64,000 nt of DNA. It comes from Eledone cirrhosa. Taxonomy: Eukaryota. A program made the translations under genes and the position numbers. The stretch spans positions 48,918,001-48,982,000 of the forward strand of contig OZ024742.1 of NCBI GenBank assembly GCA_964016885.1. The letters are read 5' to 3'. Within the stretch, counting starts at the first letter, position 1, and every line of letters starts with the position of its first letter. The notes below the pieces were generated by a model that saw only the letters and a program-made list of their open reading frames with translations, was not told the origin of the DNA and searched no databases. Shown one piece after another: positions 4,910 through 55,032 of this stretch.

Positions 4910-4946
<37 letters not shown>

Positions 4947-4948
<2 letters not shown>

Positions 4949-5135
4949 CGAAGGAAATGTGGTAAGGAACCAGATGGACCATAACGCACCAAAGTACTCA
5001 ATACTTATGGTAGTAGAGTGGGTAATAGGAACGAGTAGGACCCCGACGGCTAATTCTGGACTAAAGATAGTCCAGAGTTAGTCCAGAATTAGCCGTCGAC
5101 ACGGCTTGAGCTCAGCCGTCGGGCTCCTACTCCTT

Positions 5136-5140
<5 letters not shown>
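4947..5140 (-). mobile_element. Short dispersed repeat (likely PLE pLTR 3' end) with 5' fold-back and the 3' half of a hammerhead
   Basis: aacgaaggaaatgtggtaaggaaccagatggacc...; other copies at 24568-24738, 36430-36630, 45751-45946 and 56590-56645; the family carries GAAA-CGGC..GCCG-TC. Confidence 0.7.
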
Positions 5141-5177
<37 letters not shown>

Positions 5178-5191
5178 TATATATATATATA

Positions 5192-7128
5192 GTAATAATA
5201 ATAAATTTGAAGACTAAAATCCAAAGAGGGTTCGATAAGGATAAATATATATCAAATATATAAGAGCCGTAGAGCAAATATTTATTAAAATAACAGATTA
5301 ATGTTTAAGCAAAGAATCGCTGCTTTCACCCTTAACGGGATCTTCTGAAACTAACAAAGTCTATCTGTGAATGCAGAAGAGTATATTTCAAAAAAACGTT
5401 GCAACCGGAGGGAGACAGGAAGACGATACTTTGGTCCGTGGAAACGTTCCCTGGCAAAGAACGGGAAAAAACGAATATAATACGTCATTATTTGGAGCGG
5501 TGAAAAACAATTACACGTGAAAACAAAACCACGTTTATGGTATAAAAGAAGTCGTAGACTAATATTCTATTAGGTGATTCATAGAGACGTTCTCTGGCAA
5601 TGAAGGGAAAAAACGAAGATAATACGTCATTTGTGGAGTGGGGAAAACAATTGCACGCAAAGACAAAACCACGTAAATGGTATAACTGAAGTCATACACT
5701 AAAATTCTAACTAGGAAACCAAATGAATCTCGGCTTCAGAGTTAAGAATAAAGTAAATAAAATATAGAGGTAATTGAAATGAAATAAATACATACACGCA
5801 TCCATATACGTACATACACAAGCATACGCGAAAACACTCGCCATAGGTATACAAATACACGCGCGTACACAGAAAAAAAAGCACACGCACATACAGAACC
5901 CACGCAACGCCTGTACCCGCACGTATACGAGTGTATACACCAAATACACATATAAATATATATTTAAAAAAAAATATATATATATATATGTGTGTGTGTG
6001 TGCCTGTATACATATAATTGAATAAACGTATATAAATAAATAGATACGTATATAACAAGCGCACACACATACCTACATGTAAATACACATATGTTCGGAG
6101 ACGAACGTGAACCAAAACACGAAGTACACATATACACAGACCCTACATACGTACGAACCTGCATACTCACACAGACACAAAACTCGCGTATACACATAAC
6201 CAAAAGCATATGTACCAGAAAATATAATATATACGGCATAACATATACAATCAAATATACGTACGAGAAAGTATACGTACCTTCACAAAACATACAGGTA
6301 ATATATACTTACCTATACAAATAATTAATGGTATAAACATAACATATACTTAGCTACCACACCAAGACGTAAAATATCCGCGTATAGTTCGTACTATCCG
6401 TTAGGGTATAATGTGGGGCTGTAATACAGGAAGGTTTTGTGCAATTTATGTTTACAAGCCAAAATTGCCTCAGATTTTTTGTTTAAGATGTGGTCTTTTG
6501 CGTGGAGTATTTCCAGGGCCTCAGCGGCGCAGAGGTCACATGGTCTTTTATTTCCGTTATACGATCTAGCCCTAGCTAGGATCTCCCAGTGTAACTTATA
6601 TTGGGTGTGGTTGTCTTTTAGACTCCAGATATAAGCTGAAAATTATGAAAATATTCCTTCTTAAAGGGTAACGAAAAGAATGGGTATGCATGTAAAGACG
6701 CTGCTTGAATCTTGAATCTATGTAGGCCCTACGGGTGTGGGTGTTTCAACCTTACATTTGTAGACCATGTTAATAGAGAGGCATTTCGCGGATAGGGGGC
6801 AGTCAACCCGATTCCTACAATTACAATTAGTATTAACTACAGGGTTGCAAGTGTTCCTACTGCTAAGTAGTTTAGCTAAATTTGAAGCTGTGATGTTATG
6901 TGCAAGGTTAGGAGTCATAGAGTAAGAAATTTTAATAGTATTTCTATAAAAAATGTCACTATATTTATGTGTAGGGGAAAATGCCTCATAATAAGGGGGG
7001 GAAAGATCTTAGCTAACTCTGTAGCCACCTCCATATTATATGGTGGGTTATACCATATAAGGCGTCGGGATCTATTTCTTCTAGGTCTATTCTCGTACTC
7101 TTTATATGCTACCTTATCAACAAATCCA
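5192..7128 (-). mobile_element. PLE family A, 5'-truncated copy (RT C-terminus, GIY-YIG, 3' UTR/pLTR with hammerhead at 5302-5352)
   Basis: IWYNPPY, CNCRNRVDCPLSAKCL, VYKCKV peptides; colinear with 16318-18040. Confidence 0.9.
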
Positions 7129-7425
7129 CGCAACATACAGCCACGCACGCACATACAGAACCCACGCAACGCCTGTACCCGCACACATACGAACGTATCC
7201 GCCAAATACACATTAAAAAAAATATATAAAAACATACAAGCTGGTGATATATTCGGCTCGGATAATTCGTAGAGCTATTTCAAATGTCGTGTAGACCCGG
7301 CTACTTTGTTTAGTGGCGCAAATCTACACGACACGCTAAGTTCGGGAACCATCTGCGTTATATACACACACTTTGCAGTTTTCCATTTGATTTAGAAGTA
7401 GAAGTGAGGCGTATACTAATTTCAA

Positions 7426-7506
7426 CACCCACTGATGAGACTGGAATTTGGTATTTATCTTCACAAATAATATTGCGAAACTGTTATACCAATGACCGTC
7501 TGGGTG
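7426..7506 (+). ncRNA. Type I hammerhead ribozyme (distinct family)
   Basis: CACCCA-CTGATGA-[38-nt stem II region]-GAAA-C(T)GTTA..TGAC(C)G-TC-TGGGTG; perfect 6-bp stem I, GUC triplet, one mismatch in stem III. Confidence 0.75.
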
Positions 7507-7749
7507 ATGGTAGTTACCACATCACCAGTTTGTATTTATTTTTCTTAATTTATTTTTAAATTGAGTCCAGCAAACCCTATTGTCTGTAGTTAGTATTTTT
7601 TTCCGCTTAGCGATTTTGGTCCATTACAATTTTAACACATATATCTATGTATGTGTTCGTTTTTTCCTTTTTGTTCAGTTATATACGGCTCGGAAAAGCC
7701 TTTTTCCTAGTGCTAATTTACTGTAATGAAACTATTTTGAGTTTCTAAC

Positions 7750-9612
7750 TCAAAACAAGCTTTTGATATAAAAACATATATACATATACATGTGTGTGTG
7801 TGTGTGTGTGTATACATAATTAAATAAACGATATATAAATATACACACATAAATACGTATATAACGCGTGTACACACACACCCACATGTAAATATACATA
7901 TGTTCGCGGACGTACGTCATCCAAAACAAAAAGTACACATAAAGACACACCCTACATACGTACGAACCCGCATACTCACACAGGCGCAAAACTCGCGTAT
8001 ACACATAACGAAATGCACATGTACCAATATATATAATATAAAGGCCAATAACATATACAAACAAATATACGTACAAGAAAGTATACGTACCTTCACAAAA
8101 CATACAGCTAATATATACTTACCTATACGAATAAGTAATGTTATTAACATAACATGTACTTAGCTACCACATCAAGACGTAAAATATCCGCGTATAGTTC
8201 GTACTATCCGTTAGGGTATAATGTGGGCCTGTAATTCAGGAAAGGTTTGTGCAATTTATGTTTACAAGCCGAAATTGCCTCAGATTTTTTGTTTAAGATG
8301 TGGTCTTTGGCGTAGAGTAATTTCCAGGGCCTCAGCGGCGCAGAGGTCACATGGTCTTTTATTTCCGTTATACGATCTAGCCCTAGCTAGGATCTCCCAG
8401 TGTAACTTATATTGCGTGTTGTTGTCTTTTAGACTCCAGATATAAGCTGAAAGTGACGTCATATTCCTTCTTAAAGGGTTAAGAAAAGAATGGGTATGCA
8501 TGTAAAGACGCTGCTTGAATGTTGAATCTATGTAGGCCCTACGGGTGTGGGTGTTTCAACCTTACATTTGTAGACAATGTTAATAGAGAGGCATTTCCCG
8601 GATAGGGGGCAGTCAACCTGATTCCTACAATTACAGTTATTACTAGCTACAGGGTTGCACGTGTTCCTACGGCTAGGTAATTTAGCTAAATTTGAAGCTG
8701 TGATGTTATGTGCAAGTTTAGGAGTTGTAGAGTAAGAAATTTTAATGGTATTTCTATTAAAAATGTTCCTATATTTATGTGCTGGGGGAAAATGCTTCAT
8801 AATAAGGGAGAGAAAGATCTTAGCTAATGGCCTGGCCACCTCCATATTATATGGTGGGTTATACAATATGAGGCGTCGGGATCTATTTCTTCTAGGTCTA
8901 TTCTCGTATAAGCTACCTTATCGAAAAGTCCACTCCGAACAAGAGCTTCATTGTAATATGTGGAATGGTCGTTGAAAATATGCTCATTTGTAGATAGACG
9001 GGAAAGCCTCAAAGAAACGTTTCTTACCAGGTTCTTGGTTATGCTGGCAGGATGGTTAAAATGCTTACTTATGTAATTAAACGAATCATTCGGCTTTCTA
9101 TACGGGTTATGCAAGCCATTCGACAAATCAAGTGTAACGTCGAGCTAATAACGACCGAGAGGTTGGCCTCAACCTGTATGGAGAGGTTGAAGCCTTTAAA
9201 AAAGCATGTGTGTTATTTTCTGAACCTGTCGCAAGCACGTGGGCCGCACTTTGTCAGGGTCAAAAGACCGTTGTTACGGTACAAACCACCGCCCACGTTG
9301 GGGAAATCTTCCTTGATAGGGAAAAGAAGGAAACACCGACTTACGGGCATTGAGGATGACATCAACTTCAAAATCCTTAACCACTGTGAATGTTTTAGCA
9401 AAATTGATAGCTCTAAGAAGAAGTGGTAAAGTGATGGAGGAATAGTAATTATTGATGTCGAATTGGATAAAACGGCAATATTATCTTTCCACGAACCAAA
9501 GTAACATCTTCCTGTCTTCCTTCGGTTGCAACGTTTTTTGAAATATTCACTTCTGCGTTCACAGATTGACTGTTTTAGTTTCAGAAGATCCCGTTAAGTG
9601 TGAAAGCAGCAA
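7750..9612 (-). mobile_element. PLE family A, deleted copy with inverted pLTR piece at its 5' junction (9489-9612, +)
   Basis: GGGLYRNNGL, YRKPND..YISKH.NHP, CNCR..CPLSGKCL, WEILARARSYNG..CDLC; the inverted pLTR holds part of the CAGAAGA hammerhead. Confidence 0.9.
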
Positions 9613-16317: not shown

Positions 16318-19300
16318 TTATTTATTAAAATAACAGATTAAATTGTAAGCAAAGAATCGCTGCTTTCACCCTTAACGGGATCTTCTGAAACTAAAAAAGT
16401 CAATCTGTCAACGCTGAAGTGGATATTTCCAAAGACGTTGCAACCGGAGGAAGACAGGAAGACGATACTTTGGTTCGTGGAAACATTCCCTGGCAAAGAA
16501 CGGAAAAAAACGTATATAATACGTCAGTAATAGGAGAGGTGAAAAACAATTACGCGCAAAGACAGAACCACCTTTATTGTATAAAAGAGGTCGTAGACTA
16601 ATGTTCTCTTAGGTGATTCATAGAGACGTCCTCTGGCAATGAACGAAAAAAACGAAGATAATACGTCATATGTGGTGCGTGGAGAACAATTGCACGCAAA
16701 GACAAAACCACGTAAATGGTATAGCAGAAGTTGTAGACTAAAATTCTAACAAGGAGATAGAATGAATCTCCGCATCAGAGTTAAGAATAAAGTAAATAAA
16801 TACAATACAGACGTAATAGAAATTAAATAAATACATACACGCATACAAATACGTACATACACAAGCATACGCGAAAACACTTACCATAGGTATACAAAAC
16901 CACGCACATATAAGTATGTGTGTGTGTGTGCGTGTATACAAATAAATAAATAATTAAATAAACGTATATAAATAAATAAATACGTATATAACAAGCGCAC
17001 AAACATACCTACGTGTAAATATACAAATATTCGGAAACGTAAGTCAACAAAATCATGAAGTACACATATACACACACCCTACATACGAACGAACCTGCAT
17101 ACTCACACAGACGCAAAACTCCCGTATACACATAACCAAACCATATGTACCAGAATATATTAAATTATACGCCATAACATATACAATCAAATATACGTAC
17201 GAGAAAGTATACGTACCTTCACAAAACATACAGGTAATATATACTTACCTATGCAAATAAGTAATGGTATAAACAAAACATATACTTAGCTACCACATAG
17301 ATCGTACTATCCGTTAGGGTATAACGTGGGGCTGTAATACAGGAAGGTTTTGTGCAATTTATGTTTACAAGCCGAAATTGCCTCAGATTTTTTGTTTAAG
17401 ATGTGGTATGTGGCGTAGAGTATTTCCAGGGCCTCAGCGGCGCAGAGGTCACATGGTCTTTTATTTCCGTTATACGATCTAGCCCTAGCTAGGATCTCCC
17501 AGTGTAACTTATATTGGGTGCGGTTGTCTTTTAGATTCCAGATATAAGCTGAAAGTAACGTCATATTCCTTCTTAGAGGGTAGCGAAAAGAATGGGTATG
17601 CATGTAAAGACGCTGCTTGAATCTATTGGCGGTTAACCCTATGTAGGTCCTACGGGACGTGGGTGTTTCAACCTTACATTTGTAGACAATGTTACGAGAG
17701 AGGCATTTCCCGGATAGGGGGCAATCAGCCCGATTCCTACAATTACAGTTAGTACTAACTACAGGGTTGCACGTGTTCCTACGGCTAGGTAGTTTAGCTG
17801 AATTTGAAGCTGTGATGTTATGTGCAGTCGTAGAGTAAGAAATGTTAATAGTATTTCTATTAAAATGTTACTATATTTATGTGTAGAGGGAAAAAGCTTC
17901 GTAATAAGGGAAAGAAAGAACTTAGCTAATGGTGTGGCCACTTCCATATTATATGGTGAGTTATACCAACAAATGCGAGGGGATCTATTTCTTCTTGGTC
18001 TATTTTCGTACTCTGTATATGCTACCTTATCGACAAATCCACTCCGAGCAAAAGCTTCATTGTAATAAGTGGAATGGTCGTTAAAAATATGTTCGTTAGT
18101 AGATAGGCGGGAAAGCCTCAACGAAACGCTTCTTACCAGGTTCTTGGTTATGCTGGAAGGATGGTTGGAATGTTTACTTATGTAATTAAGCGTATCATTC
18201 GGCTTTCTATACGGGTAATACAACCCATTCGATAAATTGAGGGTAACGTCGAGGTAATTAACGACTGAGAGATTGACCTCAACCTGTATAGAGAGGTTGA
18301 AGCCTTTAAAGAAGGTTGAAGCCTTTAAAGAAGGCACGAGGTCCCCACTTAGTCATGGTCAAAAGACCATCATCACGGTACAAACCACCGCCCGCGTTGG
18401 GGAATTCGTCCTTGATAGAGAAAAGAAGGAAAAGGCTGATAAGATCAGTAACCTCCGCAGAATCGATGGCGCCCATACTCACATCGAATGGGGTACTATT
18501 GGATTTTTTAATCCAAATAGAGTCGTCGAAATTAATCACCAACTTACGGGCATTGAGGATGACATCAACTTCGAAATCCTTAACCACTGTGAGTGTTTTA
18601 GCGAAATTGATAGCTCTAAGGAGAAGTGGTAAAGTGATGGAGGAATAGTAATTGTTGATGTCGAATTGGATAAAACGGCAATGTTCCTTGTTACATATGC
18701 CGTTGAACCAATCAATCACCGCGAAAGAATTGTTCCACAGTGCAAGAGCGGCCAAACTTCTAATTTCAGGTATAATTCAATCAAGAATCGTTTTACTAAG
18801 TCTACCTAAATCGGACTTCGTAGTGTTAATAAGCCGAATAGAGGGGCTCTTCGGAAAATTGGATTTGTGATCCTTCAGGGTAAAGTGGCGAGAAATACGG
18901 TTCAGAGGTTCGCTCCGGTCCAGGATGTTGAGATCAGATGTGATTTTAAACCGAGCATCGTTGATTTCATTGATGACGCACCGATTAGTTTTACCGTAAT
19001 CCTTAGTTACAGCATTATGTAGTAGTTGATAGTAAGTACTGCGCTCCACTTGATATAGGTTGCCAGTCTTGTCGGAATGGACGTGTACGGCATTAGAATC
19101 CTTAATAGAACGAATTCTATTCTTCAGTTCCTGCTGGAAGGAATTGCTCCTATTCCGAAATTTGAAACTCCGTATGAGTTCCAAGACATCATTTTCGAAT
19201 GGTAGCAATACTGGTTTACACGGGGGGTTATTATAGGTTTTAAACCCAAATTTATCCTGTTTGTTGTCTGCTTTTCGCGGATTATCGAAATAAAAGGCAC

Positions 19301-19345
19301 GCCAACGCAACCTTTTAATGAACGCGTCTGTTTTCTGTACAAAAT
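16318..19345 (-). mobile_element. PLE family A, longest copy: RT plus C-terminal GIY-YIG (frameshifted), 3' UTR and pLTR hammerhead at 16343-16392; possibly Hydra clade
   Basis: RWRAFYF, SDKTGNLY, TLKDHK.NF..IRLIN, QFDINNYY, MGAIDSAEV, LYRDDGL, NYLDVTLNL, YRKPN, SAYIWNLK, CDLC, LNKKSE. Clade inferred from the CxC linker. Confidence 0.92.
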
Positions 19346-19388
19346 TTACTCTGTTTATTTATACACACACACACACACACACACACAT

Positions 19389-24565: not shown

Positions 24566-24748
24566 AATGAAGGAAGTGTGGTAAGGAACCCGGTGAACCA
24601 TAACGCACCAGAGTACTCGATACTTTAGGTAGTAGAGTGGGTAATAGGAAAAGGTTCAGGACCCCGACGACTATTTCAGTCGAGAAATAGCCGTCGAAAC
24701 GGCTTGAGCTCTGCCGTCGAGGTCTTGAACCTTTTCCTCTCTCTATAT

Positions 24749-24781
<33 letters not shown>

Positions 24782-30103: not shown

Positions 30104-31097
30104 TGGGGATTCTTTTCTTGGGTTTTATGCCTCTCCTTTGTTCATCAATTACCTGTAGTAGACATAGATCTCTAGTTAGAAACCATTAATAACAAAAGAC
30201 AAATCCTCCATTCCAATTATGCCAAACCCATGACTTCCAAATATCTGATCCACAGAAACTCAGCTGTTTCGGATCACACCAAAATCAACATACTGATTGC
30301 GGATTTGCTACGGGTGATGAGAAACGTGTCCCGTATGTGCAACCCCAAAGAACTAGAGAGACACATACAACACATCATCCACGGTATGCAGTTCTCTGAT
30401 TACAATCACAGAGATAAAATCAGAGTATATAAACTTAATATTAAGATAGTAGAAAGACCAGGAACTTCCATAAAAACACTTATTAGCAATAGATACCCTT
30501 TTCAAAGAACTCCCTGTATAGATAAGAAGTGCATAATCTGTAAACTAAACCCCCATATTAACTGTAAAACTAAAAATGTAGTATATAGCATAAGTTGTAC
30601 TGAAGGACAATGTAAAGATAAGAATATAGTGTACATAGGTGAGACAGCTCGTAGTATAGGAGAACGGTTAAATGAACAATGGCGAGAACTTCAAGATAAA
30701 AAAGAATCATCAATATTCCACCAACATGCTAAAATAGACATAAGGGCAAATTAGAGAACATAGAAATAAAAATAGAATCTACACACAGAAAAGACGCAAT
30801 GTTTAGACAAATCACAGAGGCTATAAACATAAATGAACTCCAACCAAAATTAAATAGAAAACATGAATGGAATAGCAACAACACAACTTACAACTAAGGA
30901 CAAAATGAAAACACACACACACGTAGAACAAACAACCAACCAGTAACATGTAAATAAACAAATAAATAAACAAATAAACACCCGTATTCAGACACCCGGA
31001 TGTAACACATGCGCAAACTAAGCACACAACACACACAAAAACAAGATGGCGTAGGACAGAACAAAGGAGAGGCACAAAACAAATAAAAGAATCCGCA

Positions 31098-31140
31098 GTC
31101 ACTGAAGAGGTCACATAATGTGTGAGGAAAGAACTTTGAC
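31098..31140 (+). ncRNA. Hammerhead in the 5' pLTR of family B
   Basis: GTCA-CTGAAGA-GGTCACA taatg TGTGAG-GAAA-GAAC-TT-TGAC. Confidence 0.75.
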
Positions 31141-31274
31141 AATATATGAACAACCGTCCGGTTATGGAACCATCCAACCAACCAACCGGAAATTTATAAA
31201 TTCTTAAATTTATAAATTTAATTTATAATAAATTGGAGTGAAAGCAACTGGTGCGTGTGTTTCTTATTGGTAAC

Positions 31275-34200
31275 ATGACCCTCCCAAAGCATAACAATAT
31301 CGGTTTCAACACACGTTTTCAGATAAAGAATCTTGCTAAACAAATTTAGAAACGAAATATCGTAATCCTTAGTCAGGCTAACAAGATACTGAAAACCACC
31401 ATGTTCTGTTGTCTACGAAAAACTATAACATCTCAACAACTACACTTCATAAAAGAATGTGCTTCGTCCCGAGTTTACACCAACACCATCAACACCGATG
31501 TAAGAAGATTACAACTTTCCAAAAAGCAAGCAGATAGGCTAAAACGAACACTAATGCTAAACATTAAAAAAAAGATTTACAGAAAATTAAGTCATAAAGA
31601 AAAACATAAGCGTAACATAATACAAGAAATAAGTAAGATCACCACACCAAGAGAAAAATTAATATAGATAAACCTTATATGTCTCGAAGAAAAGTACATT
31701 GTTCAAGATTGTGACAAACACTTTAACAAGAAATTAAGGTGGCTCAAACGGATGAGACTAAACCAAGAAACTTCAGAGAATAGAGATAAATATCCAGACA
31801 AAATTGATGGTATAAACATTGCCGACATCTCATTAACAGATGAATTCAACAACAACACAAATATATACGGCAACACTACAGTCGACTCTGATGATTTATC
31901 GATATTACAGCTACCACCTAAATATACCACATATAATGAGGTAAATATGATAAAATGCTGGTCAGAAATAGAAAAATCATTTACAAAATTACGTTTGAGC
32001 CTCAAAACCAAAAACAAAAGTAACAACATACGCACACACACACATACAACACACATCCCAACAACAACAGACACACAGACACAAACAACGATAACAGCAA
32101 CAACACACACATCAACAATAATAACATACTCAGAAACAACAACAACAGACACACAGACACAAACAACAATAACAACAACACACACAACAATAATAACATA
32201 CACGGAGACAACATAACAACAACACACATCAACAACAGCACACACACATTCTATGCCTCTCACCACCACCACAATCTTAACAAACACACAGACACAGAAA
32301 ACAGGTAATGACGGTAACACAGAAGTAAGGGAAGGTGATGGGATTGAAAGGAGAAGGGAAACTATCGATACTGACAGAGAAAATAACCAGGATGAACACA
32401 CAGACTCACAAAATAGAGTAGATAATAACAATGAGCCAGAGGGAAGAGACAGGAGTAATAATGAGAGACATAGAAACAAACATGAGGCTGTTGGTAGAAA
32501 TAGAAATAGAAACAACACAACTAACAATAGCAATAGTACACATAAAGCAGCAGCCTGGAATTCTACTTTTTATAATCCTTCCAATATGTCCTTCGACCTA
32601 CAACGAGTCCGCGCCATGACTTTAGCTTTTAACAAACGCACGCAATTGCCGTCGCAGGTCGATGAACAAACAGAAGCACAATTTAGTATAGCTAGATCTG
32701 AACTGAGAAATATTATAGAACAGTATAGCAAGAAGCAAAATAGAATGGAGGCCCAGCAACTGGGAGAAAAATCTGCAAATCGCTTGCTTAAGCTCATGCA
32801 GCGCTCGCCTAGTGGAAAGAGTGCCTGCTTTCCAACAGACAAGTCTGGCAGAATTTCGTTGACAGTCTGTCAAACTACATCCAGGCAATGCAACCCCACA
32901 TCACTAACACAAGAGAAGTAACACCACAAGATCATGAGGATAGGGAGAAAACCCTCAATGGCCATATGATGATGTGGACAAACATAATGCAGCCCAATAA
33001 AAGAACGGCCAACAAATTCCAGGCCTGGAACAATGACGTGCCAGCGTTGTATGGGCTTCAAAAAGACCATAAAACGAGCAGTGACCCTGTCACAGGGCCA
33101 CCAATACGGCCAGTCTGAGGAGCTAACATTGCTAGTAAATACAGAGTTTCCTACTTCCTCTCCCTGATCATACGCCCCCATCATTGAAATGTCCCCAGAT
33201 ATATGTGACAACACGGAGGACCTCCTCAGCAGAATCAGCGAAAATAACCGATCTAGGGACCTAACAAACTGTATAATAGGTAGTATGGATGTTGTGTCCC
33301 TATATCCATCCATTGACGTGGATTTTGCTGTGGAGAAATGCGTAGAAATGATCAGTGAGAGCAATGTTGAATTCTGTGGGATTGATACCAATGAGCTGGG
33401 ACACCTACTTAAACTTATCCATAGTAATGATTATCTAGATACTTATGACCTTAGAAACCTGTGCCTTACAAGACCAGCAAGAGGCAGACCACCTACTATT
33501 ACCTCAATGGCCAAGAAAACCCACACAGAGATGGAACGTGTGGACCAGAGCCATACGGACCCCCGAAAACTACGATGAACTAAAGAAAATGATTGCTCAT
33601 GAGGTGGGGGCCAGTATAAAATTAACCCTGTTCAAATTTAATGAAAAACATATGCCCAAGAGGAGGGAGCAGCTATTGGTGTTAGCATTGCAGGTGACAA
33701 AGCTAACCTATTCATGGTATGGTTGGACAATAAACTTAAAGAACAATTAGCAGACAACAACCTCTTAACCCTGATTATGTACTCCCGGTACGTTGATGAT
33801 ATAAACATCGTAGTAAAAACACTCCCACTAGAGAACAATCAGGAATTAGAGAAAAACACCACGGAAAGCATCCAGTAAATAGCTAACTCCACCCACCAGA
33901 GTATTAGAGTTACGATAGACTACCCAAGCGAACACCCCAACCATCGATTACCTGTACTAGACACAGAGCTCTGGTTAGAAACCATTAATTCCATTCCCAT
34001 TATGCCAAATCCATGACTTCCAAATATCTGATCCACCGAAACTCAGCTGTTTCGGATCACACCAAAATCAACATACTGATTGCGGATTTGGTGCGGGTGA
34101 TGAGAAACGTGTCCCGCATGTGCAACCCCAAAGAACTATAGAGACACATACAACACTTCATCCACCGTATGCAGTTCTCTCGTTACAATGAGAGATATAA

Positions 34201-34891
34201 AATCAGAGTATATAGAGGAGCCAGAACCGAATGGAAAAAATGGTAAATAATGATACAAATGGGACCTGCCGTTTGTATAGGAGCAAATTTTGGAATAGAA
34301 TAGAACGAACTAGGAATAAGGTTAATAGAATAAACTCATGGTATGATAGCAATAAATACCAGAGTGCAATGTTCATCAATACCACCCTTAGAGGTGAATT
34401 AGCTAACAAATTTAGAAGGGTCCTAGATAAAAATAAACTTAAAATTAAGATACTAGAAAGACCAGGTACCTCCATAAAAACACTTATTAGCATTACATAA
34501 CCTTTTCAAATACCTCCCTGTATAGATAAGAAATGCATAATATGTAAACTAAACCCCCATAATAACTGTAAAACTAGAAATGTAGTATATAGCATAAGAT
34601 GTACTGAAGGACAATGTAAAGATAAGAATTTAGTGTATATAGGTGAGACAGCTCATAGTATAGGAGAACGGTTAAAAGAACACTGGCGAGAACTTCAAGA
34701 TAAAAAAAGAATCATCAATATTCCACCAACATGCTAAAATAGACCATAAGGGCAAATTAGAGACCATAGAAATGAAAATAGAATCTACACACAGAAAAGA
34801 CAATAAATGTGAGGCAATAAACATAAATGAACTCCGACCAAAATTAAATAGAAAACATGAATGGAATAGCAGCATCATAACTTACAATTAA
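31275..34891 (+). pseudogene. Disrupted PLE ORF (N-terminus, RT, GIY-YIG)
   Basis: Starts MTLPKHNN inside the pLTR; PTDKSG, LYGLQKDHK, PPIRPV, SMDVVSLYPSI, AIGVSIAG, RYVDDINIV, LPVLDTELW, NVVYSI.C..YIGETAHSIGERLKEH; several stops and frameshifts. Confidence 0.9.
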
Positions 34892-35091
34892 GGACAAAAT
34901 GAAAACACACACACACGTAGAACAAACAACCAACCAGTAACATGAAAATAAACAAATAAATAAACAAATAAACACCCGTATTCAGACACCCGTATGTAAC
35001 ACATGCGCAAACTAAGCACACAACACACACAAAAACAAGATGGCGTAGGACAGAACAAAGGAGAGGCACAAAACAAAGAAAAGAATGCCCA

Positions 35092-35134
35092 GTCACTGAA
35101 GAGTTCACATAATGTGTGGCGAAAGGACTTTGAC
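35092..35134 (+). ncRNA. Hammerhead in the 3' pLTR of family B
   Basis: GTCA-CTGAAGA-GTTCACA taatg TGTGGC-GAAA-GGAC-TT-TGAC. Confidence 0.78.
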
Positions 35135-35355
35135 AATATATGAACAACCGTCCGATTATGGAACCAACCAACCGGAAATTTATAAATTCTTAAATTTATG
35201 AATTTAATTTATAATAAATTGGAGTGAAAGCTGATGGTGCGTGTGTTTCTTATTGGCAACATGACCCTCCCAAAGCATAACAATATCGGTTTCAACACAC
35301 GTTTTCAGATAAAGAATCTTGCTAAACAAATTCAGAAACGATATATATATATATG

Positions 35356-36351: not shown

Positions 36352-36404
<53 letters not shown>

Positions 36405-36640
36405 TATATAGATATATAGATATAGATATATAGGAACGAGTAGGACCCCGACGACTGAGCTCAAGGCGTTTCGGCGGCTAATTCTGGACTAGCCGTCGAA
36501 TTAGCCGTCGAAACGGCTTGAGCTCAGCCGTCGGGGACCTACTCGTTCCTATTACCCACTCTACTACCCTAAGTACTGAGTACTTTGGTCCGTTATGGTC
36601 CATCTGGTTCCTTACCACATTTCCTTCGTTATATATATAT

Positions 36641-43578: not shown

Positions 43579-43604
43579 GAATATATATATATATACATAT
43601 AATA

Positions 43605-44070
43605 TATTTTAACAAATGGAAACTATATTTATAAAAACATATTTATTTCATTATACATATTTCAAGGGCCACCAGAGCAAACTATGGTGCGCTTTCATCA
43701 GATAAAATATAATATAGGTTATTTTTATAAATAAATATTGACATACCCTTAAAAAATGCAACCATTCTGGTTGGAATCTCCTAGTTGGAATCTCCAGAAT
43801 GGTTGCATTTTTTAAGTGTATGTCAATATTTTTTTAAAGGTATGTCAATATTTATTTATAAAACTAACCTATATTATATTTTATCTAATGAAAGCGCACC
43901 ATTGTTTGCTCTGGTTGTCCTTGAAATATGTATAATGAAATAAATATGGTTTTATAAATATAGTTTCCATTTGTTAATATATTGTATATTTACTCCAATA
44001 ATTTATTGAGTGCTTTATATGAGTTGTAAAAATATTTAGCTTGTTGTATCCCAACAAATTAAATATAACC
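43605..44070 (+). mobile_element. pLTR-like module as a fold-back with hammerheads at 43644-43709 (-, intact core) and 43877-43942 (+, CTAATGA)
   Basis: TATTTTAT-CTGATGA-AAGCGCACCA..TGGTGGCCCTT-GAAA-TATGTA-TA-ATGAAATA; related to 46160-46613 and 54720-54950. Confidence 0.82.
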
Positions 44071-44108
44071 TCTACATATTTACATATATACACACACACA
44101 CAGACACG

Positions 44109-44189
<81 letters not shown>

Positions 44190-44194
<5 letters not shown>

Positions 44195-44535
44195 CATGTA
44201 TGTATATATATACATACTAATGTACGTCTGCGGACATATATGTATGTATGTATACAGACGTACAGTAATATGTATATATATACATGCATGCACACATATA
44301 TATATGCACGTATCGGTTTACAGAACATTTATTATAATGCTCGGTTTGTTTGTTTGTAAACAAACAAACATTCGGGTTGTAAACAAACAAACAATTCGGC
44401 CTCTTTGTTTGTTTACAAACAAACAAACCGGGCATTATAATAAATGTTCGGTAAACCGATACGTGCATATATGTGTGCATGTATGTATACATATACATAC
44501 TACTGTACGTCTGTATACATATATGTATGTACGCA
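44190..44535. repeat. Fold-back of a dispersed repeat also found at 9690-9840 and 21420-21590
   Basis: gtatacagacgtacagta...aacatttattataatgc..ggtttgtttg mirrored around ~44385. Confidence 0.8.
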
Positions 44536-46159
44536 CATACATAGAAAAGGGAAGTAAGGATCCTATACAAAACAGTGGATATAGAGAAAAGATGAAGTTG
44601 GAAATAGCACGGGAGATATATTTAAAGGTCTATTTTTCATTTTTGATTCGTCAAAGTGACATTATTGAAAAGATAGTGTTATTAAAAAGATAATGTTATT
44701 AAATAAAGAGAGACCACTTCTTCTTTTAAAAAAATGTTATGAAGTATATAAAGTATATCAGAAAGTTATCGGTTTCGATGTATTAAAATCCATCTTGTCA
44801 AATGTAGTGTAAAAAAATAAAATCCATCTTGTCAAATGTAGTGTAAAAAATTAAAAAGTGTTGATAGGAGTAAAAAAAGAAAGGTTTAAAATTAAAATCA
44901 AAATCGAATGTTTGAATAATTTTTCTTCCATTCTGCTTCTTGAAAAGGTTGGTTGGAAATGAGAACTATTTGTTATTTTGCTTTTCTTTTGTAAGGGAGG
45001 AGGTTGATTTGAAAAATAAATATGCTGTCAATGTATTGTTTAATCTAGTGGTCAATAGTTTAAAAGGGGACATGGGATTGTAAGAGCTGAATTCTGTGGT
45101 AGGCTGGTATGTGTACACACACACACACACATACACATACACATATGTATATAGAGAGAGTGTGAGGGTGTATATACAACAGTAAACACATGTGAGTGTG
45201 TGCGTATATGCATGTATAAATACGTGTGTGTATGTGTGGGGTTGTTGTGTGAGTTTTTTTGTGCGATTTTTTCAGCCTGTCTGTTAAAGTTACTTTTGTG
45301 GAGGGGAACTAAGAAAGAATTATTTTCTCTCCAAAATTCTGAAAATTGTCAAAAGTTAAGGGCTAAAATCCAAAGGATTCCCGGAATCCAAAAATTAAAA
45401 AATTAAAGAAGTTAAGAAAGTTAAGAAAAGTCTTCCGAAAAACTTCAAAAAATACTTTTCAAACTAAATTTAAAAAAATTTTTTATTTAAAAAATCATTC
45501 TTTAAAAAAATTAAAAGATCTTAAAAAATCTTTTCAAAACGAGACACAGTGCGTGTATATATAAATAAATAAATAAATATATACACAGAGGGAATTAAGT
45601 AACATTTCCTTCTACAGAATTCATAAAATTGTCAAAAGTTAAAGGATAAGAACCAAAGGGTTCTCAGAATACAATAGTTTCTTTAAAGAGAGCCAGAATA
45701 TCAGTGGCAGTAGTTTCTGCAATAGGTAATTTTTTCCCTCTTATATATATAACGAAGGAAATGTGGTAAGGAACCAGATGTACCATAAGGCACCAAATTA
45801 CTCAATACTTAGGGTAGTAGAGTGGGTAAAAGGAACAAGTAGGACTACGACGGCTGAGCTCAAGCCGTTTAGACGGCTAAATCTGGACTCCAGAATTAGC
45901 CGTCGAAACTGCTTGAGCTCAGCTGTCGGGGTCCTACTTGTTCCTATATATATATCCATATCCATATATATATGTAATTGAAAAAGTGGAGAATAACATG
46001 ATGAACAGTACTAAAAAGAGGATTTATTTGCAGTTTAACAATTGTTTCACTGTAAGTGTTGTCTAAAAATTGCTGAACACTAAAAACAGTGCCACTCAAT
46101 TTTAAATACGATGTTACCTCTACTAGGTCATCGGAAAAAAAATATCTATATATCTATAT

Positions 46160-46613
46160 GCAAAAGTTTTATTTAAATTGTTGAGATACAACAAGCAAAT
46201 ATTTTTATAACTGATATAAAGCACTCGACAAATATTTGGAGTAGATATACGATATTAATAAATGGAAACTATATTTATAAAACCATATTTATTTCATTAT
46301 ATATATTTCAAGGATACCAAGTTACATTATGGTATGCCTTCATCAGACAAGATACAATATATAACAGTTTTATAAATAGACATTGACGTACCCCTTTTAA
46401 AAATTGACCGTTGTTTTTGGAGGCCATCAGGATAGTATCCATACTATCCTGATGGCCTCCAAAAACAACGGTACGTCAATGTCTATTTATAAAACTGTTA
46501 TATATTGTATCTTGTCTCATGAAGGCACACCATAATGTAACTTGGTATCCTTGAAATATATATAATGAAATAAATATGGTTTTATAAATATAGTTTCCAT
46601 TTATTAATATCGT
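46160..46613 (-). mobile_element. pLTR-like module as a fold-back with hammerheads at 46290-46354 (-, intact core) and 46508-46572 (+, CTCATGA)
   Basis: TATCTTGT-CTGATGA-AGGCATACCA..TGGTATCCTT-GAAA-TATATA-TA-ATGAAATA. Confidence 0.82.
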
Positions 46614-46623
46614 ATTATATATC

Positions 46624-46654
<31 letters not shown>

Positions 46655-46659
46655 GTGTA

Positions 46660-47440
46660 CACCACCAAATAAGAGGGAAAAAATTACCCATTTCGAAATG
46701 GGGGAGGATTTTAAAGTTGGGGAGGGTCATTCCTGCACAATCTGCAACGTAGCTGCTTAAGGGGATTTTCCTTGTGTTTACTTCTCGGTTTTGTTGGCGA
46801 TGGATGGGCATTCATTTGCGTAATGACAACCCGTCTGTCCTATATAGTTATGTTGACAACCACCAATAGATTAGGTTCTCGGAGTTTCAAGTGTAGTTGT
46901 TTTTCACTGTGAAAGTTTGGCCATCTTTGAACGTGAATGTTGACCCTTCAATTAAGCATAGGCATATTTCACAGTTTGTTCTTCCGCATTTTGTTATCGT
47001 AAGGCTGGAGATAGGTTTGTGTGTCTTTGTTCCTATGAGGATGTGTTTTAGTGATGTTGGTTGCCTTTTGCTTTTGGCGATCTTGTGTGTTTCTAGAATG
47101 TTTTTCATTTTTTCATCTTTAAATAGAAAGGGGAGGTTTTTGTGCAGGAGGTCGAATATTTCGATGTTTCTGGGGTTGAACGTGGATACATATGGTAAGG
47201 TATTGTTTGTGGTGCTGTGCTTTTGGTTGTTGGGTTGATGACATTTGCGTGTTTTGCTTTATCTATACCGTTATTAATTATGTTAAGTGGGAAGGCTCTT
47301 AAGGTAAGTGTGTTTTTGAGTTCATTTAGTCTTTGTTCCCGTTTAGCTGGGTCTGATACTATGGTGCATATACGTTTGGCTAAATTGAAAGGGATGTTAA
47401 GTTTTGTTTGTTTTGGGTGATTTGATGTGAATATAGGACA
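46660..47440 (-). mobile_element. PLE family C, 5'-truncated (RT thumb, Zn linker, deleted endonuclease); Neptune-like
   Basis: FTSNHPKQTKLNIPFNLAKRICTIVSD; LPYVSTFNP; KSKRQPTSLKHIL; KCGRTNCEIC. Confidence 0.8.
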
Positions 47441-47812
47441 AATAAATTTTTTTTTTAATATGGTCTCTCTAATAAAGTAGTATATAGAATACCTATGAAC
47501 TTAACAGCTATGTATAGTTAGGAAATAAAAAAAGTCATATATATATTTATATATATCTACATATATACATATATACATATATATGTCCATACACAATGAG
47601 AAATTGGTTATAGTTTCACTATACTAACAAAAAACATACAAGTTAGTAAGACAACCAAGGGTGGTTTTTTTTTTTGCTTTTGTTATCCTTTTAATATTTT
47701 TTTTCTTTCTTTTCTTTAGAAGAGCATTTCTTTGGAAAAGCTGGAAGAAGTTCATGATCTGCAGAGACAATGTTTGTCTTCCAAGGTAAAACAGGGTTGC
47801 TCCAAAATAGAT

Positions 47813-47976
47813 TTAAATGAGGTCAGCAGCATTCATTGGCATTTCAGCAACTACAGAGTTATAAAAATGTTCGATGTCTCGAAGAGTCCGATATCATCGT
47901 CAGTTACGAAGTTGATAGCAACTCCTTTACGACCAAATCGACCACCTCTGCCAAAACGATGAATATAATTTTCTCT
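47813..47976 (-). pseudogene. EIF4A: eIF4A (DEAD-box helicase) C-terminal pseudogene fragment with a 1-nt frameshift
   Basis: [53 protein letters not shown], matching motif VI and the eIF4A1/2 C-terminus. Confidence 0.93.
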
Positions 47977-48017
47977 GCAGTGTGTGTGTGTGTATATATC
48001 TATATGTATGTATATGA

Positions 48018-48054
<37 letters not shown>

Positions 48055-48377
48055 CATATATACATATATATATATATATCATAATCTATAAAGCTCAGTG
48101 TGTGGTCATGCTCCTTCGTTATAGAAATCTACGATATAAAATTTCTTCAAGTGAAATTTACAATTCACTACTCGAAATAGTTTCGATTGCGTCTTGACGC
48201 AGATAATGTTTTCAATTTCACCCACAATTATGCAAAAAATAGATAAAACTCAATATTATACGATTTTTCTCTCTCATTTAAACTGCTGAACTCTTTCTAC
48301 TACCATTCAAAATCTATACAACTTCATACCCTCTGCTACTTTTTCTTTCCAAGCTTGATGGTGATACTGTCCGTTTA

Positions 48378-48600
48378 CACCACTCCCTACTGTCTTAAAT
48401 TTAGAAAACACATATCCTCTCTGAGGTTACTAAACCTGCTAGAAACAGCAGCTAACTCTCCCCCATATCACACCACTCCCTGCTGTCTTAAATTTAGAAA
48501 ACACATATCCTCTATGAGGTCAGTAAACCTGCTAGAAACAACAGCTAACTCTCCCTCATATCACAACCCTCCTTACTGTCTTAAATTTAGAAAACACACA
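48378..48600. repeat. Tandem repeat, ~93 bp x2.4
   Basis: ctgtcttaaatttagaaaacaca occurs three times. Confidence 0.85.
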
Positions 48601-48894
48601 GACAACCATGCAGAACAACTCCATCGCAGCTCTGTTGTTCGGCTGGCATCGTCTACGCGCGTGTTGCGCAAGTACTGTGAAACAATAAATTTCAACACTT
48701 TTTTGCACAGAGATAATATCCATAGGCGAAACTACAATTGTCACTGCTGGCGCAGCTCATGCTTCCAGGTCTGCAATTCATTCACCCAGTACCTAGCAGA
48801 CAAAAAAGTGCTGCCATAAAAAATTTTTTAAATTTAGTTTGAAAAGTATTTTTTGAAGTTTTTCGGAAGACTTTTCTTAACTTTCTTAACTTCT

Positions 48895-49110
48895 TTGATT
48901 ATAGATGTAGCTAGCCCATTTGAAATAAAAGTGCAAAAAAAAGAAGAGAAAAGTAACCGGTACCAGGATTTAAAATGGGAATTGAAAAGGATTTGGGACT
49001 GTCAGGAGTTCAAGGTCGTGCCCATCCTCATATGATCACTAGGTACTATCTCGAAGAGCTTTCTATGCTGGTTTACGAACATTAGCCACGTCCCTTTTTG
49101 GAACATTCAA
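48895..49110 (+). mobile_element. R4/Dong-type LINE restriction-like endonuclease fragment
   Basis: LIIDVASPF...KEEKSNRYQDLKWELKRIW...VVPILI*SLGTI. Confidence 0.8.
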
Positions 49111-50413
49111 GAAGACTCAAATATACGCTATAAACTATAATTTGAAGTGCTTCACTTTCTCGAAAATTATATTTAGGTGCACAAATTGATACCATAATTA
49201 AAGCATATATATACTTATATAATCATTTGCTACATAGAAACCATATATTCACTTATTCGTCGGGGTTAAGTTTTTTAAAAAAATGGCAGCAAATGGTGGT
49301 CAGTCTGAAGTTTGGCATGTTGAGGGACCGTTCATGTTGAGGGACCGTTCGCGCTACTGAACATTCTGTTGTTGACGCCAGAATTGTAAATAGAACCGTT
49401 ACGAATTGTCGAATTATGCAGATCTGAATTAATTTCCTTTTAAAATCGTTAAATTCTTTGAATAGTCTGATATATAAATGATCATGTAATCCAAACTCTT
49501 CTGTAATCTCTGGTAAATAATTATCTCCTAAAGGTAAAAAGTGAATCTTCTGGATTCAGCATCTAAACCAAATAATTATACATTCTATATAATTATCCAC
49601 CAACGATAAAAAGTTATTTTCTGGAATGTTGGTAATAATTAAATATCTTTCCCACTTAATTAACTTTTTACATTTATCATTGGAATCTATCACATATTCA
49701 ATAAACCTGAATTCCATAATTTTGATCAAACGCTTCTAAAACTTCTCTCTGTGTTCTTTATGTACTTTGCTACTATCACATTGCCATTATCCCATTAAAT
49801 ATTATCTGGCTTGTTGCCTTATGTATTTCACCCTAATATTTCCCTGACTTTTTTTTTGTTTGACTACTAAGAAGATGATAGTCTATATGATTTCCTCATG
49901 TACTTTAATTTGTAAACAATTTCGGTTCTGCAGTTCAAATAGCATTTCACATAACCCAACCACACTTTTCGTCAACAAGTTGAAACTGTAGAGTTTTCTT
50001 ATCACATACTTTCTTTTTCTGGAAAAGATCTTGATGGATTACCGCCCGCTTTTTCAACGTACTCCCAAAGAGCTTTTTAAGATTACTATACTTCCTGTAG
50101 AGGCTATGGGATAGAACAACATCTTTCACAACTAAAACACTACTAATATTCCGGAATTGACAACAAAGTGACTCAATGTATACAATTAACTCATTTTAAT
50201 ATATATAGTCACACCAACTTTGGAGCTAGTCAGGAGCATAACATAAATAGTCCTGTCTCCAAACCCCATGTTTCAAGCAAACAAGAAATTATTTTAAAAC
50301 AGTGCGTTCTTTCTTTTGTTATTTGTAATATTTACATAGATTGTGACTGATATATTTCCCACCGATCAATTAATTAGATAATGGATTAAATAAATATTTC
50401 TGGAAGAAATCTA

Positions 50414-50511
<98 letters not shown>

Positions 50512-51047
50512 GGGGTGGAGCGTAGACGTATAAAAGCCAGTAAATTTAGATTCTGCCTCAACGTTTCTCTGGAACAAAGGAAAGACATTCATTTTTACAA
50601 AATGGCAGTTATCAGTAGGCGTTCACTTCATCCAACGATCCCTTCCTATATTGCGTTATCTCTTAACTGCCCTTGTAAAATTAATTACTCACGTAACTTC
50701 GGATCATGTAATACATAACAAAGTTAAGATTTACTTCCCCAGTTATCATACGCTACAACAATAAATCTTTCCCTCTCCTGTTTAACTTATTCAACCATTA
50801 AAATGCTTCGGTGACGTTTTTTTTGCATGCCACTATTGTTAGATTCGTTGCTAGCAGTGTGCGATAAGATGTTTTCTTTTCTCTATCACACAGATATACT
50901 ACTGTATCAAGCCGAGCAATTACTTACTCAAGTTTATTTCTTATCTGTGTTTATACTAAACTAAATACGAACTTGCTGCTTTCTGTCTGTTGTGTTTCCT
51001 GTGATGTTTAATAAATATTTTTATTGTTTATATATATATATATATTC

Positions 51048-54640: not shown

Positions 54641-54757
54641 TTGACACTGAAAATGACATACTGTAAGTTAATTTTAATAGGCAATATCAACTTTTTAAAT
54701 GGAAGTTGAAGTTGTAAGGTATGTCAAATCTATCTATTTATAAGACTGTTTATATTG

Positions 54758-54823
54758 TATTTTGTCTGATGAAGGCATACCATATTTTTAATATGATATC
54801 CCTGAAATATATATAATGAAATA
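54758..54823 (+). ncRNA. Type I hammerhead in a solo pLTR-like module (54720-54950)
   Basis: TATTTTGT-CTGATGA-AGG..CCT-GAAA-TATATA-TA-ATGAAATA. Confidence 0.8.
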
Positions 54824-54949
54824 AATATGGTTTTATAAATATAGTTTCCATTTATTTAATATCGTAAATATACTCCAAATACTTGTTGAGTGCTTTTATA
54901 TCAGTTATAAATATTTACTCGTTGTAACCCAACAATTTAAATAAAACTT

Positions 54950-55032
<83 letters not shown>

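Follow-up and report, generated by a model that had tools for sequence, protein, structure and literature searches.

On the minus strand of a 64,000-nt stretch of Eledone cirrhosa DNA (the window; GenBank assembly GCA_964016885.1, contig OZ024742.1, positions 48,918,001 to 48,982,000), a 5′-truncated copy of an eIF4A mRNA (47977-47435) is followed by a decayed fragment of a Penelope-like element (PLE; 46700-47433). Both parts have the same orientation and are directly fused, with 1-3 letters between them. The eIF4A piece is a copy of a spliced mRNA, and we consider it about evenly balanced whether this copy and the PLE were made in one insertion through a template switch by the PLE reverse transcriptase (RT), with the end of the PLE lost later. 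The confidence that we attach to this and to all other readings is a matter of judgement and was not computed.

Public contigs aligned to the locus served as a stand-in for the parent gene; 6 of 23 listed runs were used. Runs X1-X3 are one sample from organism A, X4-X5 are one sample from a related organism B, and none of the X6 contigs aligned to the locus. Some contigs of X1-X3 agree fully with the window copy (0 substitutions over 47591-47816), so this sample may be the one from which the assembly was made.

The eIF4A piece lacks an intron

The coding part of the copy (47813-47977, minus strand) is the 3′ end of an eIF4A reading frame of the I/II type. Its tract at 47976-47816 measures 161 nt, that is, 54 codons minus a 1-nt deletion near 47890, and it ends in a TAA at 47815-47813, which bears out the original prediction of an intronless eIF4A C-terminus of this length. 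The first 30 residues have eIF4A chains as their top matches (yeast eIF4A, E = 5e-13; eIF4A-I, E = 1e-11; eIF4A-III, E = 6e-10), the first peptide piece is 97% alike to an Argonauta eIF4A-like protein, and 20 of the last 25 residues match the Argonauta eIF4A-like protein P0071. The copy is disabled by its 5′ truncation, by the frameshift near 47890 and by changes of IGRGG to FGRGG and of V to A in MNVADLI. The eIF4A/PLE product as a whole appears to be a decayed, single-copy pseudogene with no sign of function.

The exon-exon junction at which an intron was lost lies at 47956-47957 (minus strand), at CG|T in IHR|IGR. The eIF4A contig of organism B matches the window through UTR and coding sequence up to 47954 and then, in its loose end, reads a polypyrimidine tract followed by CAG (X4 and X5, one sample); this is an intron acceptor at CG|T in IHR|IGR, found in both of the two runs. 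The window holds 20-21 nt of the upstream exon (RENYIHR) in place of the intron. Because the window crosses IHR|IGR without the intron seen in the organism B gene, the eIF4A piece is a processed retrocopy of a spliced mRNA, and the intron loss that had been proposed as a check at ENYIHR/IGRGG is there. A contig from an eIF4A paralogue of organism A (X1 and X3; window 47893-47948) also has its acceptor at IHR|IGR and reads on as VRILNDIQQF. An intron at this place in the organism A parent gene is thus suggested by the organism B gene together with the organism A paralogue.

A genomic duplication of the last exon, against which a ctgcag just upstream had been raised as a caution, is ruled out by the missing IHR|IGR intron and the upstream exon letters. 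The most likely reading of the ctgcag itself is that flank meets the 5′-truncated copy within it (C|AGA GAA): a homologue reads LPSNRENYIHR over the truncation point, and the window has no pyrimidine tract before ctgcag.

As originally described, the 5′ end of the copy directly adjoins a (CA)n/(TA)n microsatellite (47977-48079), which is the likely insertion target. It consists of a tandem repeat at 47993-48079 from which purine-pyrimidine alternation continues to 47977. Adjoining a TA/CA tract is true of only 12% of window positions.

The 3′ UTR ends without a tail

The TAA is followed by 378 nt of 3′ UTR copy (47812-47435, minus strand), about 5% diverged from a second locus that we take to be the parent. 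A second low-copy contig of organism A aligns at 47591-47816 with 12 substitutions and 18 gap letters and again at 47449-47530 with 3 substitutions; the copy holds a (TA)-type repeat at 47531-47590, and the parent contigs also run into it. The UTR assignment made earlier is upheld by this alignment, its length of about 360 nt is not, and the doubt whether 47457-47812 is eIF4A UTR at all falls away. Besides the window's UTR version, organism A has one other, and both have similar depth (about 7-10), which suggests a single copy and no spread. The other version and organism B agree at 8 sites where the window differs, and because of these 8 common letters we regard the other version as parental and that of the window as its decayed copy. 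The private substitutions of the window UTR number 8 in 226 nt (3.5-4%), and its total difference from the parent is 15 in 308.

The original prediction had the two parts fused through an A-run (A10, 47447-47456). Past the aligned part, the parent contig reads ATT-A8-T-AATTCATTTGTCCT-GTTCTG, and over 47448-47435 it matches the window in 13 of 14 letters; no other of 128,000 window positions gives such a match. Since the parent locus DNA carries the A-run and 12 nt of further match, the A10 is templated, its reading as a poly(A) remnant is ruled out, and the eIF4A edge of the fusion moves to 47435/47434, where the parent match stops. At that edge an untemplated poly(A) tail is lacking, with at most one A present. 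This counts in favor of a template switch, as a tail-primed LINE retrocopy would carry a tail. A 37-nt match to organism B at 47444-47480 has 7 mismatches and unlike sequence on both sides; it was taken as chance and dropped.

The templated A-run overlaps an ATTAAA hexamer at 47459-47454 (together 47447-47459, minus strand; A10 in the window, A8-T-AA in the parent), a candidate polyadenylation signal. The 378-nt UTR has two ATTAAA hexamers and no AATAAA. From the end of the hexamer to the junction there are 19 nt, a normal distance for a cleavage site, and by a rough estimate a random break would fall in such a window in 5-10% of cases. An equally good candidate cleavage site in the parent is a CA that lies 12 nt past the hexamer and has a U/GU-rich run behind it; the true cut could therefore be 8 nt upstream of the junction or a long way beyond it.

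The PLE fragment is broken at both ends

The PLE fragment (46700-47433, minus strand, 734 nt) comprises the RT thumb, a CX4CxxC linker and most of the GIY-YIG endonuclease, and it spans amino acids 461 to about 712 of the best long homolog (745 amino acids). The RT-thumb sequence expected in the same orientation after eIF4A is thus present, with endonuclease sequence in addition. The fragment carries stops and at least 3 small deletions. The 68-residue thumb has 515 homologs at E ≤ 0.001, and a Pfam scan of six long homologs found RVT_1 in 3 and GIY-YIG in 5, while no relevant Pfam family matched the window's own PLE pieces and a word-index protein search with a 104-amino-acid piece gave no match. 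The translated linker, CGRTNCEIC, fits the CX2-5CxxC motif between RT and endonuclease that defines Neptune/Nematis-type EN+ PLEs (PMC8557442). We accordingly label the fragment, which is without the RT core, as putatively Neptune/Nematis-type from this linker motif.

At the eIF4A side, contigs of the PLE family start at 47433 (one contig per run) or at 47431 (11 contigs in X1), and upstream of 47433/47431 their translated loose ends read KPTDSKQYLL. Between the end of the parent match and the start of the PLE family there remain 1 to 3 letters (A or ATA; 47432-47434, minus strand) whose assignment to either partner is uncertain. At the join, we could show no microhomology in register. Among the contigs listed from the public runs aligned here none crosses the junction, so evidence for the join itself comes from the assembly. 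Aligned contigs from X1 number 554, nearly all on the PLE part, and 239 of them are 90-95% alike; the apparent ages of the eIF4A copy and the PLE piece do not conflict, this PLE figure being an overall contig likeness and not a private rate.

The other end had been placed at 46660, but the family contigs part from the window at 46700/46701 and read on as FYKCSDSF. Some 30 codons are lost, as is the terminal repeat, and the element's own 3′ end or pLTR is absent. The 45 letters that follow (46655-46699, minus strand) are not PLE sequence. Within them, 46669-46692 is an inverted copy of 45721-45744 (23 of 24 letters), likely repair filler. At four candidate 3′ ends, with microsatellite on the flanks and a rearranged 3′ side, no target-site duplication of at least 4 nt was found.

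Next to this stretch, in a (TA)n tract, lies an inverted pair of a repeat with a hammerhead motif (46142-46654; arms 46247-46392 and 46470-46615, 99% alike). The repeat is roughly 290 nt long, has a CTGATGA...GAAA motif and a hairpin center, and starts with a YPDGL-type PLE coding tail; the inverted pair at 46142-46615 has further occurrences at 43594-44090 and 54718-54970. We use the word hammerhead because of the CTGATGA/GAAA motif and a predicted stem II; an Rfam scan of 44000-50000 gave no match at gathering score and no hammerhead family, nor did a strict hammerhead pattern match. That the pair is the PLE fragment's own end is unlikely. Its arms are too alike, with 2 differences in about 165 letters where about 12 would be expected at the age of the eIF4A copy (P about 6e-4), and the YPDGL coding tail is unlike the ends of the 12 PLE homologs listed, all of which close with a P-x-L-N/H type motif. 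Homogenization of the arms could be another cause of their likeness. The pair is probably a separate, later insertion and not part of the fusion event.

One insertion or several

Under a single insertion, a Neptune-type PLE would have nicked the (TA)n/(CA)n tract and begun to copy its own RNA, synthesis would have stopped in the RT-thumb region at 47431-47433, and the enzyme would then have moved to an eIF4A mRNA, entering it at its likely 3′ end or just beyond and adding 1-3 extra letters. The RNA that was copied was spliced, as the missing intron shows, and the copy takes in about 540 nt, as far as the 5′ end that now abuts the microsatellite. The PLE 3′ end, which is missing from the locus, was likely removed by a later deletion that left a short filler, and the neighboring hammerhead repeat pair was likely inserted later. 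The neighborhood would suit such an element, as PLEs with the CX2-5CxxC linker have been proposed to favor microsatellites (PMC8557442), and template jumps with 1-2 nt overhangs have been shown in vitro for the R2 RT (PMC8857657). In PLE biochemistry, nicking of both strands in AT-rich DNA and internal initiation are described, and the accessible text reports no template jumping (PMC11167929). The PLE thumb motif that would be expected farther upstream is absent 5′ of the eIF4A copy within 47900-51000, so the mRNA copy did not simply insert into an existing PLE. Penelope RT reportedly performs strand transfer in vitro; we do not use this as evidence. Because the PLE has lost its 3′ end, the locus also lacks the end from which the supposed switch event would have been primed.

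The two parts might also have come separately: a LINE would have made a tailed eIF4A retrocopy, a PLE would have inserted into or near the tail, and a deletion or target loss would have removed the tail together with the 5′ part of the PLE. The break at both ends of the PLE, with filler-like DNA at the 3′ break, the lack of a shared target-site duplication and a window packed with nested repeats would all suit this account, as would the preference of a PLE endonuclease for AT-rich DNA (PMC11167929) and a spliced cargo that is atypical for PLEs (PMC8557442), the host genes so far known to have been moved by PLEs keeping their introns (PMC3846280, PMC8557442). There is a precedent in a U6atac/Alu case without a duplication and with an extra A at the join, which its authors read as two events (PMC4476161). 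The locus was, moreover, broken at least once more beside the PLE, which raises the chance of a fusion by deletion. However, two insertions require that the DNA broke only a few letters from where the retrocopy likely ended, with no more than one A left over, and that a PLE on the same strand was present at that very spot. Nor is there a displaced A-run beyond the PLE, though that end is rearranged. We hold two insertions to be fairly unlikely. Since the missing PLE 3′ end needs a further break under a template switch and under two insertions alike, it takes away proof more than it helps to tell the two apart.

The joining could instead have happened before copying, if a 5′-truncated PLE at the 3′ end of the parent gene was read through from the eIF4A promoter (5′ transduction), or if two RNAs were ligated, and the PLE machinery then copied the spliced chimeric RNA in cis. 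This would give one cause for the intron loss, the missing tail and the shared orientation, and RNA-level joining has been reported for L1 chimeras (PMC6789731, PMC13174262). Against it, the parent contig has 131-132 more letters beyond the junction point that do not align to the window, and the 30 that were read (one sample) are not PLE, so that a lost allele would be needed. Splice signals are poor, with CCT|GTTCTG in the parent and no AG directly before the PLE start, and the junction is not at a hammerhead site. As for ligation, to our knowledge an mRNA 3′-OH end is not an RtcB substrate. A pre-formed RNA of this kind strikes us as improbable.

Finally, another enzyme, such as a LINE RT, or RNA-templated break repair may have started on an interior part of a PLE RNA and switched from there to the eIF4A mRNA. 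The internal 3′ end of the PLE piece would then need no later deletion, and double jumps are described for LINEs (PMC2104539), but we found no LINE 3′ end at 46700, and the 45 letters there look like local DNA. We regard this origin as slightly less probable still. Template switching by the PLE RT, as the original prediction had proposed, is the leading reading of a locus that cannot alone prove a mechanism; the fusion through an A-run does not hold, the natural PLE 3′ end is missing and no shared duplication was found.

Comparison with known chimeras

The closest likeness is to the LINE chimeric retrogenes (U6/L1, snRNA/L2/RTE, mRNA/L1 and Magnaporthe MINE), which also have a host RNA copy 5′ of a 5′-truncated element on the same strand and in direct fusion (PMC4476161, PMC2104539, PMC13174262). 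Their partner is a LINE, whereas here it is a PLE, and they are defined by the element's 3′ end together with a target-site duplication common to both parts, neither of which was found here. In addition, most of 17 mRNA/L1 chimeras have first exons on a near-full-length L1, in contrast to the mRNA 3′ end in our case.

Host gene sequence is also associated with a PLE in Adineta vaga, where an NRPS gene lies between Pen3a pLTRs (PMC3846280). That captured gene has kept all its introns, sits between pLTRs, carries no internal PLE sequence and has an 8-bp duplication and an empty allele (PMC3846280), whereas in our case a spliced cargo is found on the 5′ side of internal ORF sequence, without a pLTR of the element's own family. 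LTR-mediated retroposition by template switch likewise yields an intronless, tailless mRNA piece fused to a retroelement, but with the element on both sides and about 6 bp of microsimilarity at the joins (PMC5131818); here the element is on one side only. With Neptune/Nematis-type EN+ PLEs, our locus shares the RT, the CX2-5CxxC linker, the C-terminal GIY-YIG domain and the microsatellite neighborhood (PMC8557442, PMC3846280), while only a 734-nt decayed internal fragment is present.

In the accessible literature, with subscription papers mostly outside it, we found no published report of a spliced host mRNA fused to a PLE. We propose, tentatively and with more doubt than conviction, that PLE RTs generate processed pseudogenes through jumps off their own RNA onto the tailless 3′ end of spliced host mRNAs. 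If this is true, PLE-rich genomes such as the present one would contain a class of retrocopies that end at the polyadenylation site, have no poly(A) and are fused to 5′-truncated PLEs. PLE complexes would meet spliced RNA despite the known intron retention, template jumping would occur in vivo, and PLEs would have to be added to L1 and LTR elements as a source of retrocopies. The layout itself (an end near a polyadenylation signal, no tail and a 5′-truncated PLE next to it) offers a sharp genome-wide test.

Surroundings of the chimera

The window is AT-rich and crowded with (TA)n/(CA)n tracts, nested repeats and retroelement debris. An 86-nt inverted repeat (45401-45486 and 48816-48900, 97.7% identical, 3.3 kb apart) lies on both sides of the chimera. 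It is colinear with the 24-nt inverted match of 45721-45744 and 46669-46692, and the sequence between is without counterpart; our guess is that the repeat is templated filler. A large inverted duplication that would provide an empty site inside the window was rejected, the only inverted matches being of 86 nt and 24-31 nt and other alignments being at or about shuffle level. Starting exactly at the 86-nt repeat, a plus-strand fragment at 48901-49035 reads IDVASPFEIKVQKKEEKSNRYQDLKWELKRIW and, we presume, resembles the restriction-type endonuclease end of R4/Dong LINEs. There is also a 93-nt tandem repeat at 48377-48598 (2.4 copies, 92% alike).

A second palindromic repeat family with (TA)n flanks occurs at 45742-45976 and also at 4938-5169, 24566-24765 and 36404-36639, and is probably another terminal repeat pair of PLE type. 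At 17310-19358 (minus strand), a nearly complete decayed ORF with RT and GIY-YIG-like parts represents a different PLE family, with partial copies at 5965-9333; it was identified by eye from translations, and two pieces of it gave no Pfam match. Further PLE-like pieces lie on the plus strand at 30176-30751 and 33168-33575, with a weak GIY-YIG match (E = 0.011), and together with a 930-nt direct repeat (30429-31360 and 34433-35346) they show the partial-tandem layout of PLEs.
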